Positions 1 to 11,743 of a stretch of DNA of 64,000 bases are shown in pieces. A program made the position numbers and the translations under genes. Under the pieces are notes generated by a model. That model worked only from the letters and a program-made list of their open reading frames with translations. It ran no database searches and was not told the DNA's origin. Position 1 is the first letter of the stretch; each line of letters begins with the position of its first letter. Source of the stretch: Deferribacteres bacterium. Its GTDB lineage: Bacteria > Zhuqueibacterota > Zhuqueibacteria > Zhuqueibacterales > Geothermadaptataceae. The stretch lies in contig JACKDF010000011.1 in assembly GCA_020633655.1 (NCBI GenBank), forward strand, positions 65,827 through 129,826, given 5' to 3'.

Positions 1-136
1 CCCCTGCGGATATTGCCCGCAGCCTCACCAAATCCCACCGTGTGAAATGGTGGTTTCTGGTGTTTTCAGCACTGGCATTCATTGCCGGACTTGGTTGTGC
101 GGTGAAATCTATTGTTCCAGCTTCATAATACAACCA

Positions 137-345
137 GGGCTGAATCAAAACATAAAAATGCTGTATCTGAATTTTTTTGCAAAGTCCATCGGAGGACAGA
201 TCAGCGAAAAAAGCTGGGACAAGGATCTGTTCTGCACAACACTTGATAATGTAACGCAAGTACTGAGTCAAATTTATGTACGCAACTGTCGGGCCCAATT
301 CTTCCAAAAGGGGAATTGACTGGCTAAACTTTCCGCCATAAATCA
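137..345. repeat. Partial, diverged copy of a ~300-bp MITE-like element (family with GGGGCTGWGTCAAAAC termini)
   Basis: The left end GGGCTGAATCAAAACAT starts at 137. The internal blocks GGACAGATCAGCGAAAAAAGC, CTTGATAAT and GGGGAATTGAC are colinear with the full copy at 7119-7426. The right terminus is not recognisable. Confidence 0.5.
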
Positions 346-403
346 AAACGACTACATCGAACGGCATATTTATTCATTAAAATTATCCATCTCAGGAGAT
401 AAA

Positions 404-610
404 ATGCCCGAACCGAAGATCCTCAAAGTGGAATGTGCCCACTGCGAAAAAATTTTCCATGCCCGTTCCGACCAGGAAGCGAAGGACGACTCGCCTGTGG
501 AAATCGCTGTCAATTGTCCCTATTGCGAAAAGCCGAATATCATACAAGTGCCGAAATTTATGACCCATAAAATGACCACTTATCGGGGTACCAAATCCCA
601 GGAACAATAA
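404..610 (+). CDS. Small Zn-ribbon protein (two CxxC pairs, MJ0042-like finger), probably co-transcribed with the CHAT-STAND gene
   Basis: 68-aa ORF with CAHC...CPYC. GGAG lies just upstream of the ATG. The stop is 15 nt before the start of the next gene on the same strand. Confidence 0.55.
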   Translation: MPEPKILKVECAHCEKIFHARSDQEAKDDSPVEIAVNCPYCEKPNIIQVPKFMTHKMTTYRGTKSQEQ

Positions 611-625
611 CACCTCGGGGGCGCC

Positions 626-3313
626 ATGCGTAATGCCTTGCCAATCACCATTTCTCCACAGCTGGACGATAACCAGCGCCGTAGCGCCGTTCGTTTGACC
701 AAAGAATTTAAGGACATGCTCGAGCAGCGGCCGGAAAGCAAAGAATCCGCTGCCGACAAAGAACGCCGTGGGAAAAAGTTCGCGCACACTTTCAACGAGC
801 TTGCCGGCACGCTTGGCGCGGCGCTTTTCGATTGTGTCGAGGGGGGCGCAGAAGCGTTCAAAGAAAAACTCGAAGACGCTGTCCTCAACACTGAATTTCT
901 GCAACTCAACATCACCGGCGACGAAACGATCCAAAGTCTGCCGTGGGAAGTGGCTGCCCACGCCGATCCGAAACTTGGCCTGCTCGCGCACAATCCCGAT
1001 ATTGCTTTTGTCCGCCGCACGCGAAAGTTCAGCAAAGAGTTGCGCAACCTGCCGCCAAAACCGCTGCGCATTTTGCTGTTTATCAGCGCACCGGAGGATC
1101 TTGATCCCGAAAAAGTGCGGTTGGACTACGAAGGCGAAATCAACAAAATTGAAGCGGCTTTGGATGAGGCCATTACTGCCGGAACCGTCGTTCTTGATAT
1201 TGCCGAAGACGGCCGTTTGAGCACCCTGGAGCGTTGGCTTGGCAGTCACACCTACCACGTTGTGCATTTCAGCATGCATGGCAACCGTGGCGAAATCGAT
1301 CTCCTCACCCACGAAGAAAAGCGACCACCGGCCTTGCATTTTGAAGACGAGCAGACAGGCAATGCCCGGGCAGTGAGTCCGGAGGAGCTGGCGGTCTGCT
1401 TCCAAAATGCGCAAAACCGCCCACCGCTGCTGGTGCTTTCCGCCTGCCAGACCGCCGATTTTGATTCCCGCGATGGCATAGCCTCCTTTGCCTCACGCAT
1501 GCACGCTGCCAATTTTGCTAACGTGATCGGCATGCAGCTTTCAGTGGCGGATAGCAGCGCGACAAAATTTGCCGTGGCGCTGTACCAGGCGTTGCTGCAG
1601 GATATGCCCCTCGATGCCGCCATGGCACGGGCACGGGCGGCTTTGAAAGACGACGGTTTGCAATGGAGCATTCCGGTGCTGCACTCCTCGCTGGAAGATC
1701 TGAACTGGAACAACGGCAGCAGCGAAAAAATACCGGCGCGACAACATGTGCGCGATATACAGATCGGGCAGATACCTTTCCGCAGCCAGGGCTTTATTGG
1801 CCGGCGGCGTTTTATCCGCGAGCATTACCGCCCCTGGGCCAGCGGACGCAATCCGCACTTGCTAATTCATGGCATTGGCGGCGTCGGCAAAACCACGCTG
1901 GCGGGGCATTTTGCCCTGCGCCTGCAACGGGAAAAAGCGGACACCGCCATTTTTACCCTGGCGCCGCCCTTTGAACTGGAAACATTGATTGAGCAATTGC
2001 AACAGGCTTGTACCGCTCACAACGTGGTCATTGAGGAAAAACAAAAACAGGCGGCCAGTGAGCCTATGCAGGTGGTTTCCTTGTATGTGCATGCGTTGGT
2101 TCCGGAATTAACCTGCATTTTTATTCTGGATAACCTGGAAGATGCCCTCGCTTTGGCGCCCATGGAATTTTTGCCGGATTTTAGCGAACTCGGCGATCTG
2201 GTTACCCTGCTCATCAGCCAGCCGAATACACACACGGTGCTCACCTGCCGCCACCCCATAAGCAGCGAAAGCGTGCGCGCCCACACCACACCGGCACCCC
2301 TCGGCGACGCCAGCCAGGGCGATATTTTGCGTTTGCTGCGCAACTGGGACTGGCCGCTCGAGGTGACACCAGAAGTGAAAAAGGATATTTACACCACCCT
2401 GGGCGGTAATTTCCGCAGTTTGGAGTGGTGCGCCTGCCTGCTCGGCCAGGCGCGTGACGGCGCCGACAGCACGGCCATGAGCCACAGCGGCTGGAACGCC
2501 CTGAAACAGGCCTACGAAAAAGAGAAAACGAAAACAGCGGAAGTGGCGACGCAACAGGTTGTGCAACATATGCAACAAAATCTGTTGTTTAACCACCTGC
2601 TCGATCTGCTTGCGGAAGAGGAACAAAAATTCCTCGCTAAAATGGCGTTGGAGGAAAACCTGGTGCCGGAAGATGCCGCCACAGCCCTGTGGCACGGCAA
2701 AAAAGCCTCAGCCTTACTCGACCGCTGCACCAGCCTGACCTTGCTGCAGCCCAGTCCGCACCCGTTCGGCTTGCTCTTTTATTTCACCCCGCCACTGGTG
2801 CGCGAACTGCTGCAAAAAAATATCCGGCTGTCCGTTGCAGAGGAAAAGGACGCCCACGCAGCGCTTGCCAGAATCTGGCGCTATTTCGGTGAACACGTAA
2901 CCCGGCTTATCACTGATGATTTATTTGCCATCTCCCATTTTGAACAGGCCGACTTGGTTCAAGAGGCTTTTATCCTGCGTGCTGATTTAGGGGCCCGACT
3001 TGTCGATAACCAGCGCTTTCGTGAGGGTTTTACAATGCTTTTACAATGCTATCAGCAGAATGCTGATGCAATGTCAACGAAGGCTTTAAATGAGCTTGGT
3101 CGATCGTTGCATTTACTAGGAAATTTAGATAGTGCGTTAGAAATCTACCAAAAGAATCTCATCACTCTTCAACAAATCGGCGATAAAAGCGGCGAAGGCA
3201 CGACGCTGAATAATATCAGCCAAATTTTCAAAGCACGGGGCGACTACGACACCAAATCTATGATGCAAAAGGCGACTACGACACTGCGTATCTTGAGCAA
3301 TCGCTTGCGATAA
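626..3313 (+). CDS. CHAT (caspase-like protease) - NB-ARC/STAND NTPase - TPR protein; ORF ends prematurely inside its own TPR repeat array
   Basis: VVHFSMHGN and LLVLSACQTA match the CHAT His/Cys dyad context. LLIHGIGGVGKTTLAGHFA is a P-loop and CIFILDNLEDA a Walker B. The C-terminal repeats are of the form GDKSGEGTTLNNISQI(F/Y)xAxGDYDT. The ORF runs 895 aa and stops at a repeat junction. Confidence 0.85.
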   Translation: MRNALPITISPQLDDNQRRSAVRLTKEFKDMLEQRPESKESAADKERRGKKFAHTFNELAGTLGAALFDCVEGGAEAFKEKLEDAVLNTEFLQLNITGDETIQSLPWEVAAHADPKLGLLAHNPDIAFVRRTRKFSKELRNLPPKPLRILLFISAPEDLDPEKVRLDYEGEINKIEAALDEAITAGTVVLDIAEDGRLSTLERWLGSHTYHVVHFSMHGNRGEIDLLTHEEKRPPALHFEDEQTGNARAVSPEELAVCFQNAQNRPPLLVLSACQTADFDSRDGIASFASRMHAANFANVIGMQLSVADSSATKFAVALYQALLQDMPLDAAMARARAALKDDGLQWSIPVLHSSLEDLNWNNGSSEKIPARQHVRDIQIGQIPFRSQGFIGRRRFIREHYRPWASGRNPHLLIHGIGGVGKTTLAGHFALRLQREKADTAIFTLAPPFELETLIEQLQQACTAHNVVIEEKQKQAASEPMQVVSLYVHALVPELTCIFILDNLEDALALAPMEFLPDFSELGDLVTLLISQPNTHTVLTCRHPISSESVRAHTTPAPLGDASQGDILRLLRNWDWPLEVTPEVKKDIYTTLGGNFRSLEWCACLLGQARDGADSTAMSHSGWNALKQAYEKEKTKTAEVATQQVVQHMQQNLLFNHLLDLLAEEEQKFLAKMALEENLVPEDAATALWHGKKASALLDRCTSLTLLQPSPHPFGLLFYFTPPLVRELLQKNIRLSVAEEKDAHAALARIWRYFGEHVTRLITDDLFAISHFEQADLVQEAFILRADLGARLVDNQRFREGFTMLLQCYQQNADAMSTKALNELGRSLHLLGNLDSALEIYQKNLITLQQIGDKSGEGTTLNNISQIFKARGDYDTKSMMQKATTTLRILSNRLR

Positions 3314-3850
3314 GACAACAAATCGGTGATAAAAGCGGCGAAGGCACGACGCTGAATAATATCAGCCAAATCTATGATGCGAAAGGCGACTACGACACCG
3401 CGCTTTCGTATCTTGAGCAATCGCTTGCCATAAGACAACAAATCGGTGATAAAAGCGGCGAAGGCACGACGCTGATTCAACAAACAAATCGGTGATAAAC
3501 AGCAAATCGGCGAAGGCACGACGCTGAATAATATCAGCCAAATCTATTATGCGAAAGGCGACAGCGACACAGCGCTTTCGTGTCTTGAGCAATCGCTTGC
3601 CATAAGCCAACAAATCGGTGATAAAAGCGGTGAAGGCAAGACGCTGAATAATATCAGCCAAATCTATTATGCGAAAGGCGACAGCGACACAGCGTCGTGT
3701 CTTGAAATCGCTTGCGCGGCAACAAAGGCAGCGGCGAGGCGACTGAATAATATTGGCAGGGTATACAGATCATGGGGAGACAATGAAAAAGCACTTAAGT
3801 ATTACGGACAATCGCTTGCGATTCAACAACAAATCGGCGATAAAAGCGGC
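3170..3850 (+). repeat. Tandem 120-bp (40-aa) TPR-coding repeats, near-identical at DNA level, with scrambled junctions
   Basis: CAACAAATCGG(C/T)GATAAAAGCGGCGAAGGCACGACGCTGAATAATATCAGCCAAAT recurs at 3170, 3317 and 3437, and again near 3610. The 3317 to 3437 spacing is exactly 120 bp. There are aberrant junctions near 3255, 3475-3520 and 3690-3740. Confidence 0.9.
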
Positions 3851-4141
3851 ATGATTGCGACATTGCATAATATGGCCCATATCGCCAAACAGAACGAAGA
3901 TTATAAGCAGGCAGTCGCCTCATTTTCAAAGGCATTGCTACTCGCGCAGGAAACACAACGCCCGTATGATATTTTTGATGAACTGAGAGACCTTGGTATT
4001 CTCCTGTGCCAGCTCGGCAACAAAAAACAGGGATTGCCACTGCTGCAGCAGGCGCTGCAGCTCGGTCAGCAGGTTGGCATCCCCGGCACGGAGCGCATCG
4101 CACAGATCATCGCCCACTTCAGCGGCACAGGCACGGCGTAA
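3314..4141 (+). pseudogene. Frame-broken continuation of the CHAT-STAND gene (remaining TPR units plus C-terminal tail)
   Basis: TPR-coding sequence continues in shifting frames. The last piece is an intact 96-aa ORF at 3851-4141 (MIATLHNMAHIAKQNEDYKQAVASFSKALLLAQE...), which still reads as TPR helices. Confidence 0.7.
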
Positions 4142-4190
4142 ATTCACTAAAAATGGAGCAGGGTGGGTGGGGGGAGGTGCAATAGTGGGA

Positions 4191-5784
4191 AGGTGCGACG
4201 CACTTCACGCCGAAAGGACTGCACATTGTGGAATCTGGTGTACACTCCGGGAGAAAGTGCGTCGCACCTGTGAACCCAACAGGTTACAGAGCTTGTCTGC
4301 ACTGAGCAAAGTCGACGTGCCCGGTTGAACCTGGTCCGGCTTCGGCATGCTCAGCCTCCGTGGTTTTTTACAGACTCCGAACTGCAAATCATAAAATCTG
4401 AACGAAGTGATGACGGCATTATCCACAGGAAGTCATTTTGCTTCGCCGGCTTTCAGCTCGCTTGCCTGCTTTTCGGCATACCGGAATCCCCGGTTTCCTG
4501 CCTCGTACAAAAAGATGCCGGGATTCGATAAAAAGCATCGAACCCGGCATGACGCCAAAAAAAGGAAAGGTGCGACGCACTTCACGCCGAAAGGACTGCA
4601 CAATGTTGAATCTGCTGCACATTCCGGGAGAAAGTGCGTCGCACCTGTGAACCCAACCGTTTACAGAGCTTTTCCGCACTGAGTACTGTCAACGTATGAG
4701 GGTGGGACCTGGTCCGGCTTCGGCATGCTCAGCCTCCGTTGGTTTTTTACAGCCTCCAAACTGCAAATCATAAAATCTGCACGAAGTGACGATGGCTTCG
4801 TCCATAGGAAGTCATTTTGCTTCGCCGGCTTTCAGCTCGGTTGCCCGCTTTTCGGCATACCGGAATCCCCGGGTACTTACCTCGTACAAAGGGATGCCGG
4901 GATTCGATAAAAAGCATCGAACCCGGCATGACTGCCAAAAAAACGAAAGGTGCGACGCACTTCACGCCGAAAGGACTGCACAATGTTGAATCTGCTGCAC
5001 ATTCCGGGAGAAAGTGCGTCGCACCTGTGAACCCAACCGGTTGCAGAGCTTATCTGCACTGAGCACGACCGACGTACCCGGGTTGAACCTGGTCCGGCTT
5101 CGGCATGCTCAGCCTCCGTGGTTTTTTTACAGACTCCGAACTGCAAATCATTAAATCTGCACGAAGTGATGACGGCATTGTTCACAGGAAGTCATTTTGC
5201 TTCGCCGGCTTTCAGCTCGGTTGCCTGCTTTTCGGCATACCGGAATCCCCGGGTGCCTGCCTCGTACAATAAGATGCCGGGATTCGATAAAAAGCATCGA
5301 ACCCGGCATGACTGCCCAAAAAACGAAAGGTGCGACGCACTTCACGCCGAAAGGACTGCACTTTGTGGAACCTGCTGCACATTCCGGGAGAAAGTGCGTC
5401 GCACCTGTGAACCCAACCGGTCACAGAGCTTTTCTGCACTGAGTACTGTCAACGCATGAGGGTGGAACCTGGTCCGGCTTCGGCATGCTCAGCCTCCGTT
5501 GGTTTAAACACTGTTCAGAATGCAAATCATTAAATCTGCACGAAGTGACGATGGCATCGTCCATAGGAAGTCATTTTGCTTCGCCGGCTTTCAGCTCGGT
5601 GGCCTGCTTTTCGGCATACCGGAATCCCCGGGTGCCTGCCTCGTACAAAAAGATGCCGGGATTCGATAAAAAGCATCGAACCCGGCATGACGCCAAAAAA
5701 AGGAAAGGTGCGACGCACTTCATTCTGAAAGAACTGCACAATGTTGAACCTGCTGCACATTCCGGGAGAAAGTGCGTCGCACCT
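4191..5784. repeat. Noncoding tandem array: four ~380-bp units (A-B-A-B pattern) plus a fifth terminal hairpin module
   Basis: AGGTGCGACGCACTT starts at 4191, 4568, 4948, 5328 and 5706, giving periods of 377, 380, 380 and 378 bp. Each copy pairs with AAGTGCGTCGCACCT about 49 nt downstream, a 15-bp perfect stem. Each unit also carries a second conserved hairpin, ATGCCGGGATTCGAT-AAAAAGC-ATCGAACCCGGCAT. Confidence 0.9.
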
Positions 5785-7469: not shown

Positions 7470-8615
7470 TTGGCTGATAAATTTCAGACGGGGAAAGTTG
7501 TCACTATCTCATTCGGGCATTTAATTAACGATACCTATTCCGCATTTTTTGCACCCATGTTGCCTCTGCTCATCGCCAAACTTGGTCTCTCGCTTTCCCT
7601 GGTTGGCTTGTTGGATGTTGTGCGAAAAATCCTCCTTATTTAATCCTTTCATCGGTTTGCTCGCCGACAAAATGTGTGTGAAATACATCGTTATCTGGAC
7701 ACCGGGTTTTACAGCCCTGTTCATGAGTTTGGTGGGATTATCGCCTTCGTATCTGATCTTGTTCATTTTGCTGTTTGTCAGCGGCATCAGCTCGACGTTG
7801 TTCCACGTGCCTGCTCCAGTGATGATCAAACACCTTTCCGCCGAAAAAACAGGCGCGGGCATGAGCTATTTCATGTTCGGTGGTGAATTGGCGAGAACCT
7901 TGGGACCGCTCATTATTACCGCTGCAATGTCGTTGTGGGGCTGGAAGGATCCTTTCGCACCATGCCTGTGGGCGTGCTGGCTTCTGCCATTCTCTATTTT
8001 AAGTTGAAAGATATTCAACCGATCAGCCGGAATAATAAGAATAACAAAACCAACGCCGGTGCCACCATTAGGCGGCTTGTGCCATTTTTTATCGCAATTT
8101 CAGCTTACCAATTTTTTCGGGCAGCGATGAAATCCGCCTTAACGCTTTATCTGCCGACCTATCTGGCTAGCAGGGGAGAGTCGCTGTGGGTTGCCGGCAT
8201 TTCCTTGTCCATCATACAACCTGCGGGTGCGGGTGGTGTTTTTCTCACCGGTTTCATCGCCGATAAAATCAGTCACCGCACGATGCTGCTCATTCTCGCG
8301 GTGACCAGCCCTTTTCTCATGTTCGCATTCGTCACTGCCAACAAGGTGCTGATGATACCACTTTTAATTCTCCTCGGTTTTGTTGTTTTTGCCTCCGGAC
8401 CGGTCATCCTGGCGCTTGTTCAGGATACAAACACCGAAAGACCGGCATTTGTTAACGGCATCTATATGACCCTCAACTTTACATTGAGTTCGGTCATGGC
8501 GTTAGCCGTAGGTATTTCGGGTGATCGATTGGGACTTGAAAGTACATTTCAACTGTGCGCCTGGGCGGCGTTTTTGTCATTGCCTTTTGTTTTTCTTTTG
8601 AAAAGGAAGGCGTAA
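7470..8615 (+). pseudogene. MFS transporter (Fsr / fosmidomycin-resistance-like), split into three frames
   Basis: GHLINDTYSAFFAPMLPLLIAKLGLSLSLVG is an Fsr-type N-terminus, and hydrophobic TM segments run throughout. The frame changes at an A5 run (7625-7629) and at a G4 run (7937-7940). Confidence 0.7.
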
Positions 8616-8661: not shown

Positions 8662-8771
8662 GGGGCTGAGTCAAAACATGATTTACTGACTGTAACTCGA
8701 CATTTATGTCGAAAGCTTGGTCCTCAAGGAGGGCAACATGAATGTCGCGTTACAAGTTTTGACACAGCCCC
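8662..8771. repeat. 110-bp MITE-like element W (same termini, different core)
   Basis: GGGGCTGAGTCAAAAC...GTTTTGACACAGCCCC. Confidence 0.75.
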
Positions 8772-8821
8772 ATCGCTCACTTGGAGCATCGCATAAATAA
8801 AGCAGAATAAAAAAGGATTAC

Positions 8822-9327
8822 CATGGATCATATCCAAAATCTTTCCCGCGAAAATTTGCTCAAACTCATTGATGTTTACGCCAAAAATTGGCTCGCCCAT
8901 GATGGCTGCTGGTTTTAGCGGCAGAAGAAAAGTATGGCATGGAAACAGCGATGGAGTTGACGCGAAATCGTGGGAGCGATTTGCGGTCTCCGAAGCACGA
9001 CGCATAATGCAAACTTTCGCCATTCCATCTGACGGTGGTTTAAAGGCTCTGGAACAGGCTTTTCAATACCGATTATATGCAGCGATTAACAAACAGGAAA
9101 TTGAGTGGCCTGATGAAAATACCCTGATATTTCGCATGGTCGAATGTCGGGTGCAAAAACGCGTCGGCAAAAAAAATCTGCCGGATTTCCCCTGCAAACA
9201 AGTTGGTATTATCGAATTCAGCCAGTTCGCCAAAACAGTGGATAAACGCATCAAAACAAAGTGCATCGCCTGCCCACCGGATAAAAGTCGGGACTTTTTC
9301 TGTGCCTGGGAGTTTACTTTGGATTGA
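8822..9327 (+). pseudogene. Conserved hypothetical protein (tentatively DUF6125-like), one frameshift near 8915
   Basis: MDHIQNLSRENLLKLIDVYAKNWLAHDGCWF runs into a stop. The sequence continues in the next frame as ...AKSWERFAVSEARRIMQTF...CIACPPDKSRDFFCAWEFTLD. Confidence 0.45.
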
Positions 9328-9346
9328 GGAATTTGATCGATAAAAA

Positions 9347-11743
9347 TTAAAACTTATACCCCAAAACAAAATACACCAAATTCTGCTTCTTGCGCTCTCC
9401 GATGAACACCTTGTCTCCGTGACTAAAGATCACTTCGATTGGCCCTACCAGCGACAGCAATTTTACACCAACTCCAAATCCCGTCACATTGTAGGGATGG
9501 AGTATAATCGGACCCGAATCATATTCCAGGTTGTGGGCGATATTCGCCATGAGTTTAAAGAAGATATCCTTTTTGTATTGGTAGCGGTAATCGAAACGCA
9601 GAATGCCGATTTGCGTACCGAAGAGCTGGTCGTAGTCCAGACCGATAAAATATTCAGGTTTTCCGAGGTTCAGGTATTTGTAAATTGGGACTGTTTTCGT
9701 CGTGCCCCAGTAAGCAAAGAATCGCGTTGTATGCCGCTGGTGAAATGTGTGATAAATATTTGCAGCAGTGGAAAATAAGGCGTAATTCAAATCCGAATGC
9801 AATTCTTTAAAACTGCCTTCGTAATAACTTCGACATCAAATCCGCTTCTCGGTAGCAGCACATCATCCAGCTTGTCAATGGTCATGGACGCCTGCACTTT
9901 GCGCAATTCATGCTTCCAGGTGGGAAAAATAGACGGATCGGAGAATGCAATGTTCGGTGTGACATTCATGTATTCGTGCTGGTATTCGATCTCTGCATTA
10001 AAACATTTTTAAACAGCAAGCCAGAGCCGACCCCAATATAACTTGACCGGTTTTTGTAACTGGCGATGAGATCGCCGCCGCCACCATCGTAAATATTGGT
10101 GGGAATATCCTTGAAACCAAAGTTGAGCAGGGGATAGACAGGCATGCTGATCGTACGGGTCGGGTAATAGATTTTGCTGTTGTAGTTCACCAGTCCGGCA
10201 AATTGCAGTTCTTCTTCAAAGCGCAGACCCGGAATCAGCCAGTTCACTCCGAGAACGTTGACAATCCCCACAAGTTTGTGAAAATCATCGTAACGCAAAC
10301 CAACCCGCATCCGCTGCGTCGGCAATTCCTTGATCTCCAGCTTCAGGGTGACTTTGTTTTCGCCAATGGGCTCGACCTCGTATTTGATGTACTCGAAATA
10401 ACCCAGGCCGTACAGTTCCATTATCCGGCTGTTCAGGGCCTCGGTGTCCAGCTTATTGCCGGGTTGCACGCCCAATAATTGATAAATAAAAGTAAATGGA
10501 AGTACGTCGTTGCCCTCTATGGTGATGCCAAAAATCATCGGCTTTTGTTTTTCTTTCACATGGATGATAAGCCGGATATCGCTTTCTGACAGGGGCACAA
10601 TTTCATAGGAAACATTTTCAAAATAACCGGAAGATTTCATCTCCGCTATGCGGTCTTTTAAAACGATAAATCCAAACGGTCCGTTGGTTTTATGTGCAAT
10701 TGTTGGTAGATAAACTGAAGGGGATGGCAGTGTGCCCGGTGATTTGCAGGTCATAAATTCTTGGTTGTTTGTTCGCCAGGGCAGTGATACCCGGTTCCTG
10801 CATTCGGTGGAGGTGATACTTCTCTTTCAGCTTGAGGAGCTGTTCCACGTTGTCCTGGGCAGCGATACACCCTCGTTGAATTATCTTTACGATCTGATCG
10901 TCATCAAAATCTCCGGGGTGAATGCTCCAGATCCGGTCGTATGTGGATATCGATTAACTTTTCGTTTCTTCGGCGTTGTTCCAGTCCGAGCAAACCAATC
11001 GTCTGTTCAAGAACGGACAGCACAGTGCCGAGCTGCTTGCGTTTTTTCAGCGGGCTCTCAACATCCACAGCAATAACGATGTCTGCTCCCATTTCTTTTG
11101 CGATATTTATGGGTAAATTATTGGAGAATCCACCGTCGATGAGCAGGGAATCGCCGTACTCCACCGGTGTGAAAACGGTTGAATGGCCATTGTTGCCCGC
11201 ATTGCTTTGGCCAGGGAGCCGCTTTTTAAAATCACCTGATTTCCTGTGACCAGATCCACCGCAACACAACGGTAGGGGATGGGCAACTTATCAAAATCGG
11301 TTATGCTTTCGTATGGAAAAGTCAAGCTCGAGAACAACAGCGAAACCTTTTGGCCATAAATTATTCCACTGGGAATGACAGGTTTCACCCCATCCAAACC
11401 AAAGACGAGTTGGAATTTGCCTGTTTCTTTACGCACGAGGTAGGGCAATTCCGTTCTGCGGGGAATGTCGGAAAAGATTTCGTTCCAATCGGTTTTGTGA
11501 ACGATGTGTTCCAGGTCGTGTCCGCTGTAGCCAATGGAATAGAGCGCGCCAGCAATACCACCCATGCTCGCACCAACGATATAATCGATGGGAATTTGCA
11601 GGAATCCAACATTTTAAAGCACCGATATGGGCGAAACCTCGTGCTCCGCCACCGGAAAGCACCAGGCCGATTTTAGGGCGATCTGTCTCCTGGGAGAACG
11701 CAACGGAAGTAAGGAAAAATGAAAAAGAAGAACGCATTTCCAT
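9347..11743 (-). pseudogene. Patatin-like phospholipase - POTRA - Omp85 beta-barrel (PlpD-like, type Vd autotransporter architecture), split into at least 6 frames
   Basis: The gene opens with a signal peptide. LVLSGGGARGFAHIG is the patatin glycine-rich loop and GASMGGIAG the GxSxG motif. A POTRA-like segment lies at 9966-10754. The C-terminus ...NLVYFVLGYKF is an Omp85 beta-signal ending in Phe. Confidence 0.75.

Follow-up and report, generated by a model that had tools for sequence, protein, structure and literature searches.

We analysed a 64,000-nucleotide stretch of contig JACKDF010000011.1 (the window) and found at its left end one copy of a three-gene module which appears to be undescribed in the literature and is widely conserved. 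The module encodes a transmembrane (TM) protein of about 140 aa with three predicted helices, a small zinc-ribbon protein and a large protein which joins a CHAT protease, a STAND-type P-loop NTPase and tetratricopeptide repeats (TPRs). CHAT-STAND-TPR proteins as such are already well known; the trio appears to be new. We lean towards reading the locus as one copy of an NLR-like conflict system acting by abortive infection or cell death, in which the NTPase-TPR switch and the CHAT protease would control a membrane effector via the zinc-ribbon adaptor. An initial annotation of this DNA had described a single-chain system of protease, switch and sensor. The conserved gene for the TM protein is part of the unit, and that description had to be extended.

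The three genes are linked across distant genomes

Loci were gathered from two sides, from relatives of the CHAT-STAND protein and from relatives of the TM protein, and their six-frame open reading frames (ORFs) were scored with hidden Markov models (HMMs) from the three family alignments. For the pattern search we used a reduced TM alignment, as the diversity of the full one was too high. The generic P-loop dominated a contig scan with the CHAT-STAND alignment, which returned almost only distant relatives; these served as a negative control for the zinc-ribbon motif.

The TM protein is present in 20 distinct loci and the zinc ribbon adjoins it in 18 of them. Both exceptions are short contigs of 1.3 and 2.4 kb, on which the TM gene follows CHAT-TPR. 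An arrangement of the type seen in locus L048 puts the zinc ribbon on the far side of the CHAT gene, past the ends of such contigs. The CHAT-STAND-TPR gene was found in 15 of the 20 TM loci, three loci end too early, and two (L047 and L051) have another partner. Of the 17 loci whose sequence reaches far enough for a judgement, 15 have all three genes together. None of 37 loci from more remote CHAT/STAND relatives had the zinc-ribbon motif. The initial annotation had put the small zinc-ribbon gene forward as a possible partner of the large gene, and these counts support a true partnership. The pair also recurs outside this genome, across several phyla.

The order of the genes is not fixed. The window has the order TM-Zn-CHAT, five loci (L042, L043, L045, L058 and L060) have CHAT-TM-Zn, and L048 has Zn-CHAT-TM with two genes inserted before the TM gene. 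Identity among the small proteins across loci falls to 26-28%. Since the linkage is kept through rearrangement, the genes are probably functionally coupled. The source labels of the module include KSB1, Calditrichota, Pseudomonadota, Tectomicrobia and the multicellular magnetotactic Candidatus Magnetomoraceae.

Two side observations concern the hosts. The metagenome-assembled genome (MAG) from which the window comes is labelled Deferribacteres bacterium, and a sister MAG with an identical zinc-ribbon protein is labelled candidate division KSB1 (MCB9503717.1, MCA9735263.1). The nearest homologues are from Calditrichota and KSB1, and the source label may be imprecise. In L048 (Ca. Magnetomoraceae gMMP-15) the inserted pair consists of two opposite-strand genes of 160 aa and 50 aa between the CHAT-STAND-TPR and TM genes (9047-9653). 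Neither had a Pfam hit, and we suspect a putative toxin-antitoxin pair. A phage-type integrase lies about 3 kb beyond it.

The large gene combines a CHAT protease, a STAND NTPase and a TPR array

All features of the module in the window lie on the + strand. The CHAT-STAND-TPR ORF (626..3313, 895 aa) is identical to NCBI MCB9503717.1 and spans positions 2-871 of the 1064-position family HMM. It carries the motifs HFSMHG, LSACQTA, GIGGVGKTTLA and FILDNLED, from which the initial annotation had read a CHAT protease, an NB-ARC NTPase and TPRs. The general architecture was borne out by Pfam matches to CHAT, AAA_16 and TPR_12 and by invariant catalytic and P-loop motifs.

The CHAT caspase-fold protease domain (residues 90-342, 893..1651) matched PF12770 with an E-value of 1.1e-27. 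The profile check which had been proposed for it gave 97.7 bits, far over the cut-off of 24, and all 21 family members match as well. The catalytic residues His218 (nt 1277-1279) and Cys274 (nt 1445-1447) lie within this domain. In the 21-member family alignment, H218 and G219 of HFSMHG and C274 of LSACQTA are invariant.

The STAND-type NTPase core (residues 391-551, 1796..2278) contains the Walker A motif GIGGVGKT (nt 1871-1894) and the Walker B motif DNLE, which starts at nt 2129. The P-loop residues G416-T423 and D502 are also invariant in the family alignment, as are the two Walker motifs GIGGVGKT and DNLE. The core of the window protein matched AAA_16 with 34.1 bits (cut-off 32.6) and AAA_22 with 29.1 bits (cut-off 27). 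The NACHT score was 26.0 bits against a cut-off of 26.7, and 15 of the 21 relatives matched NACHT at E ≤ 1e-3 (best 2.7e-8). We obtained no match of the window protein to NB-ARC (PF00931) at E ≤ 0.01, and this family is not among the 25 most frequent Pfam families of the 21-member alignment. Precomputed PF00931 flags are confined to distant relatives with 25-28% identity. The Walker B sequence, hhhhDNLE, resembles the NACHT form. Judged by these profile and motif matches, the switch is a STAND NTPase of the AAA_16/NACHT-like type, and the assignment to NB-ARC was dropped.

A helical arm (2279..3025) joins the NTPase core to the TPRs. It was delimited from the family alignment and an arm HMM, has no Pfam model, and carries the family-conserved motif GNFRS.EW, in which G594, N595 and R597 are invariant. 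The NTPase_arm HMM was found in all family loci, and every family member has the conserved arm and a TPR array. The array with its family-conserved C-terminal cap extends over 3026..4141 and is interrupted in this copy. Tandem Repeats Finder, repeat families and HMMs show units of about 120 nt recurring from about 3026 to 4141. TPR_12 matches were found on the 895-aa ORF, and the ORF at 3851-4141 is TPR_12 with an E-value of 2e-11. A PDB sequence search with the large protein returned TPR proteins only.

None of the components gave a significant system match in PADLOC-DB v2, where we saw a generic TPR model and weak hits only. The weak hits were SAVED_CHAT (6e-4, over the CHAT part), mad8 (8.5e-4) and PDC-M14A (1.7e-3). 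Minus-strand ORFs of 340, 163, 153 and 195 aa lie across 392-2695, opposite the GC-rich CHAT gene, and were taken as chance ORFs and not as genes.

The small partners are a zinc ribbon and a three-helix membrane protein

The zinc-ribbon gene (404..610) encodes 68 aa and matched the zinc-ribbon HMM with an E-value of 2e-26. Its stop at 610 and the ATG of the large ORF at 626 are separated by 15 nt on the same strand, as had been annotated. The knuckles are formed by two CxxC pairs, C11/C14 and C38/C41 (CAHC...CPYC). A KxFH motif and a disordered C-terminal tail with a conserved T..RG motif complete the protein. The AlphaFold model has four strands, and pLDDT falls below 50 in tail residues 54-68. 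In 34 of 36 zinc-ribbon proteins the ribbon is followed by a hydrophobic residue or Thr, then Arg or Lys, then a small residue, with 0-31 residues behind this motif. A conserved Arg in a flexible segment is common to the zinc-ribbon protein and the cytoplasmic N-terminus predicted for the TM protein. The zinc-ribbon family is small, with 35 clusters at 50% identity among 1.84 billion representatives. Its members in the module have 68-83 aa and are cytoplasmic. The PADLOC candidate PDC-M14A was weakly matched by 12 of the 36 members (best E 9e-5), and we found no literature on the PDC-M14 candidate.

The first 128 nt of the window (1..128) hold the last 41 codons and the stop of the TM gene, which is cut by the window edge. 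Their translation, PADIARSLTKSHRVKWWFLVFSALAFIAGLGCAVKSIVPAS*, shares 80% identity with the C-terminal end of the 141-aa protein whose gene directly precedes the zinc-ribbon gene in L001. This locus of a Calditrichota MAG is the closest homologous one, and its CHAT protein is 73% identical. Positions 1-128 also matched the TM-family HMM (E 3e-9). The module therefore has three genes, and the left boundary of 404 was too far to the right. The intergenic spacer (129..403, 38.9% GC) is variable when loci are compared and measures 275 nt in the window, 151 nt in L061, the locus of the sister MAG, and 50 nt in L001. A Shine-Dalgarno sequence, AGGAG, lies about 8 nt ahead of the ATG at 404, and a promoter-like match at 377-405 is weak.

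A word-indexed search with the TM family gave 55 hits. Family-averaged hydropathy showed three hydrophobic segments. The structural model is confident (pLDDT 83.5, pTM 0.71) and has helices H15-63, H74-90 and H102-138; by this model the proteins of 135-150 aa are wholly accounted for by three helices. The loop 91-116 is strongly basic, with on average 6.8 K+R versus 1.4 D+E. The pattern is in line with an inner-membrane protein whose N-terminus is inside and whose C-terminus is outside, with the charged N-terminal helix and the basic loop exposed to the cytoplasm. Weak similarities of the family point to small membrane domains. Pfam PycTM was seen in two of 39 members at E < 0.01 and below the gathering score, the PADLOC PycTM model weakly in 10 of 39 (best E 3.3e-3), and the PADLOC SLATT model RTasSLATT weakly in two of 39 (best 3.7e-4). 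Precomputed PF18967 flags are present on about 14 of the 55 homologues.

The small genes can stand beside a different NTPase

In L047 and L051 the TM and zinc-ribbon genes are followed by a partner set made of a GHRGxGKSTE NTPase and a separate TPR protein (L047 7001-10995; L051 7884-12508). In L047, which has no CHAT domain, the set comprises a 112-aa protein, a 435-aa P-loop protein with the sequence GHRGSGKSTE (AAA_16 E 1e-5) and a 541-aa TPR protein. In L051 the small genes are followed by a 110-aa remnant of a CHAT N-terminus (8698-9030), unrelated DNA, a 468-aa NTPase and TPRs. The remnant looks like the trace of a displacement event. The two NTPases are homologous to each other (27% identity, E 5e-39) and unrelated to the window NTPase outside the P-loop. 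Common to both partner types are a P-loop NTPase and a TPR_12-type array. Since the TM and zinc-ribbon genes stay constant and the NTPase partner changes, these loci favour a view of the pair as a downstream cassette, with the zinc ribbon as the coupling element. They also raise the possibility that the protease is not the effector and works at an intermediate step.

The module shares its logic with known systems without belonging to them

CHAT proteases fused to NACHT or TPR domains adjoin bacterial gasdermins and activate them by cleavage, and the CHAT and C14 proteases of gasdermin operons occur as fusions with NACHT, TPR, LRR or WD40 domains (Johnson et al., bioRxiv 10.1101/2021.06.07.447441). 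The module resembles these operons in placing CHAT and an NLR-type NTPase and/or TPRs beside a small membrane-acting protein, and in the proposed logic by which ligand recognition and effector activation are held in one protein. It differs from them in its partners, an integral membrane protein of about 140 aa with three helices and a separate zinc ribbon, and in the existence of a CHAT-less variant. No neighbour was annotated as gasdermin, the TM and zinc-ribbon proteins had no gasdermin hit in Pfam, and membership in the gasdermin systems was rejected.

Caspase-STAND proteins pair with the small membrane protein EACC1 (Kaur et al. 2020, PMC7159879), and bacterial STANDs with N-terminal caspase-like proteases have been described (PMC13581612). 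As in the module, a gene for a small membrane protein stands beside an N-terminal caspase-superfamily peptidase with variable domains, including STAND and repeats, and the EACC1-caspase pairs are enriched in organisms with multicellular habits. However, EACC1 has a single conserved TM helix and occurs mainly in actinobacteria, whereas the module protein has three helices, comes with an obligatory zinc-ribbon gene and is found in KSB1, Calditrichota, Pseudomonadota and Desulfobacterota-type MAGs. EACC1 was not among the Pfam hits of the TM and zinc-ribbon proteins, assuming that our Pfam copy holds the EACC1 model. The effector-NTPase-repeat sensor order in one chain and the STAND-type P-loop and Walker B are shared with Avs and other NLR-like STANDs, but this clade is bound to two accessory genes. 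No Avs/AVAST model was hit in PADLOC at E ≤ 0.01.

In the type III-E Craspase, a CHAT protease with TPRs (Csx29) cleaves the small, separately encoded Csx30 upon activation. Csx29 has no NTPase, and its gene adjoins gRAMP/Cas7-11 and a CRISPR array. The module has in common with Craspase a CHAT protease with TPRs and a small, separately encoded protein. It differs in the order CHAT-NTPase-TPR with a P-loop switch, and its trigger is presumably a TPR-bound protein or ligand and not RNA. No gRAMP or cas gene was annotated in any fetched locus. The domain order and the lack of cas annotation rule out type III-E membership, in agreement with the initial annotation.

SLATT is described as a two-TM domain, and a Pycsar effector has a cyclic-nucleotide-binding domain and a cyclase gene in its operon. 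The TM protein is like PycTM and SLATT in being small, helical and membrane-bound and in belonging to a conflict-type operon, and HMM hits to these domains recur weakly in its family. It has three helices, in contrast to SLATT, and the module has neither a cyclic-nucleotide-binding domain nor an annotated cyclase. Pycsar membership was rejected, since no cyclase is annotated in any locus and the three helices make up the whole protein. A literature search for PycTM paired with CHAT found nothing relevant. SAVED-CHAT membership was rejected too. The module lacks the features which define the gasdermin, EACC1, caspase-STAND and Craspase systems and is not a member of any of them, but it shares their logic.

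Proposed mechanism and competing readings

We infer an order of events in which TPR-triggered assembly is followed by CHAT action on the small partners and the release of membrane damage. The TPR array would bind the trigger and the NTPase would then oligomerise, as other STAND switches do. Oligomerisation would gather the CHAT domains and so activate the protease. The protease may act on the zinc-ribbon protein, on the N-terminus of the TM protein in the cytoplasm, or on both. Once freed, the TM protein would form oligomers which breach or depolarise the membrane. The zinc ribbon would most likely be an adaptor or inhibitor which couples the NTPase-TPR partner to the TM protein, and the TM protein is the more likely terminal effector.

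Several observations weigh against this picture of an adaptor-controlled membrane effector. Some zinc-ribbon proteins end 0-3 residues past the conserved Arg, which suits a docking motif better than a cleavage site. The CHAT-less loci mean that proteolysis is not the universal activating step. The zinc ribbon gave no significant Pfam or PADLOC match and, in a PDB fold search, generic ribbons only (E above 1). The TM protein had no significant Pfam or PADLOC model, none of 39 members reached a gathering score, and its PDB fold search gave nothing significant, the best hit being NINJ1 (E 0.18, TM-score 0.41). A search for the TM protein among phages, plasmids and viral contigs found none, and many module loci sit amid ordinary metabolic genes. 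Toxin-antitoxin and defence-type neighbours do occur, namely AbiEii with a UvrD helicase in the sister MAG, BrnA, giant helicases, HicAB and an integrase. This neighbourhood evidence is anecdotal and carries no statistic.

The wiring could also run in reverse, with the TM and zinc-ribbon proteins as an input sensor of envelope damage or phage entry and with CHAT as the effector, which would cleave cellular proteins after NTPase assembly. The small membrane partner of caspase-STAND proteins has been read as a sensor (Kaur et al. 2020, PMC7159879), and a pair which stays constant beside a variable NTPase partner would suit an input as well. The strictly conserved catalytic dyad is in line with a CHAT effector, and such a system would resemble the broad-specificity caspase-like protease of type IV Thoeris. 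However, the C-terminal repeat array is normally the sensor in STANDs and a large TPR array is part of each partner type seen here, the CHAT-less variants would be left with no recognisable effector, and the only similarities of the TM protein, weak as they are, are to the membrane effector domains PycTM and SLATT. We regard the reverse wiring as unlikely.

We find it quite improbable that the module has no anti-phage role and is a regulatory or developmental proteolytic switch, used in kin-selective death, membrane-stress signalling or differentiation of complex or multicellular lineages. HetF-type CHAT proteases are an example of a developmental switch. Such a role would agree with the presence of the module in a multicellular magnetotactic bacterium and in a host with a 9-Mb genome, with the many loci among housekeeping genes, with the empty searches of phages, plasmids and viral contigs, and with the lack of a significant PADLOC match. 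It accords poorly with a patchy distribution, unconserved flanks, atypical GC content and toxin-antitoxin and helicase neighbours, all typical of accessory conflict genes, and with TPR arrays which are highly repetitive and fast rearranging, as is typical of diversifying sensors.

Starting again from the reading as an NLR-like conflict system, we tentatively suggest that the TM and zinc-ribbon genes may form a portable, unrecognised membrane-death cassette. NLR-like NTPases would drive it through a fused protease or, in the CHAT-less loci, without proteolysis. If true, an NLR/caspase switch would be able to bring about membrane rupture without a gasdermin, a conceptual parallel to NINJ1-type rupture in animals. 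NINJ1 is the only near-hit for the TM fold and is not significant. NLR-like STANDs with caspase-like proteases are seen as ancestors or analogues of the logic of the eukaryotic inflammasome and apoptosome, and the known downstream target of such bacterial proteases is gasdermin. The module offers a second, compact downstream arm made of a 140-aa membrane protein and a 70-aa zinc ribbon. With a defined parts list, conserved catalytic residues and natural variants (three gene orders, the CHAT-less swap and the copy with a damaged sensor), the coupling of an NTPase/protease switch to the membrane becomes approachable. Two small protein families without Pfam or PADLOC models join the catalogue of candidate conflict genes, and they would improve the annotation of KSB1, Calditrichota and related uncultivated genomes.

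The sensor array of this copy is interrupted

The large gene is not a single ORF. We found 626-4141 split into three pieces by frame changes near 3254 and 3476 and by a garbled unit near 3690-3750. The first frame-breaking lesion is a partial TPR-unit insertion at 3254..3285, which is 32 nt long by the repair test and 26 nt net when compared with L061. The second is a 52-nt partial-unit insertion at 3476..3527, seen in unit spacing and with the HMM. Unit spacing at the two breaks is 146 and 172 nt, compared with the normal 120. TPR units run on in other frames to the stop at 4141 (three-frame translation of 3101-4203). The pieces are collinear on the family HMM, where 635-3271 maps to 2-871, 3253-3474 to 854-929 and 3491-4120 to 840-1063. 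Jointly, the two insertions return the downstream sequence to the original frame. Removal of 32 nt near 3254 and 52 nt near 3476 gave a single ORF of 1,143 aa at 626-4141. A further TPR unit at about 3690-3750 is garbled and in frame after the repair.

The copy of the sister MAG (P0195, locus L061) has 92% protein identity. It reads GDYDTALSYLEQ in frame, lacks both insertions and stays in register up to the point in the array where its contig stops. This confines the lesions to this strain or to this assembly. P0002 also has a contig which, like that of P0195, breaks off within the TPRs, an indication that the array is hard to assemble. At the DNA level the window and L061 agree completely in the zinc-ribbon gene and over the first bases of the CHAT gene, and in the aligned stretch they differ by a few bases at the 3′ end of the TM gene. 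The spacer is heavily rearranged (275 versus 151 nt; window 129-610 compared with L061 6427-6784). Divergence within this one operon is strikingly uneven, with the zinc-ribbon gene at 100% DNA identity, the CHAT protein at 92% and the spacer rearranged.

The system in this window is probably impaired: the protease and the NTPase are intact, but the TPR array has two frame-breaking insertions. There is an even chance that this copy is a decaying pseudogene, or that its frame breaks are assembly artefacts of the near-identical 120-nt array. Two insertions and a garbled unit, absent insertions in so close a sister, contigs which stop in the array and a neighbouring MFS gene which is likewise frame-split all speak for one or the other. 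On the other side, everything upstream of residue ~876 is intact with every catalytic residue kept, the zinc-ribbon gene has not diverged from the sister copy, and the 32 and 52 nt jointly restore the frame and leave a clean ORF on removal. Moreover, insertions of 26-52 nt are atypical of single-base sequencing errors. The question of pseudogene or misassembly concerns this copy only and not the function of the family.

Other genes of the window show a similar pattern. Frame changes divide the MFS transporter gene at 7470-8615 into three ORFs; the ORF 7549-8007 matches positions 46-154 of the MFS_1 profile and the ORF 7935-8615 positions 158-344. Several further ORFs at 7-20 kb look short for members of their families, among them POTRA (261 aa) and FG-GAP (222 aa). 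The pattern points to assembly indel errors or to gene decay which is widespread along this section of the contig.

Composition and flanks

The initial annotation had placed the locus on GC-rich, accessory-like DNA between MITE-like repeats (miniature inverted-repeat transposable elements), and its first part held. The CHAT-NTPase segment has 55.4% GC, compared with 42.9 ± 3.1% in 2.5-kb windows elsewhere (maximum 50.5%), which corresponds to z ~4, and the GC content of third codon positions is 0.62. The first 2.5 kb of the gene are richer in GC than the flanks in six of eight related loci, so part of the bias may be intrinsic to the gene. Flanking genes vary from locus to locus. The atypical GC content and variable flanks fit accessory DNA.

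The repeats lie downstream only. They form a tandem array of 4.2 copies of a 380-bp unit, about 90% identical, at 4190-5784, which starts 49 nt past the stop of the CHAT-STAND-TPR gene. The spacer at 129-403 has none of them. The unit forms long hairpins, such as GGTGCGACGCACTT...AAGTGCGTCGCACC, with RNA fold z-scores of -4.65 (+) and -3.92 (-). The unit has no copy in the rest of the window or in any of 50 related loci. Rfam gave no match in the window, which also has no tRNAs. The array is not part of the conserved module and not a MITE pair. It may be a satellite, a structured RNA array or a degenerate mobile element.

Directly upstream of the TM gene in L061 (1579-5952), in a setting typical of defence or toxin-antitoxin genes, lie genes for a 1,193-aa UvrD-type helicase with MJ0043_C and a 176-aa NTP_transf_5/AbiEii-like protein, together with a 66-aa gene. 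The same UvrD/AbiEii neighbourhood is probably present just outside the left edge of the window.

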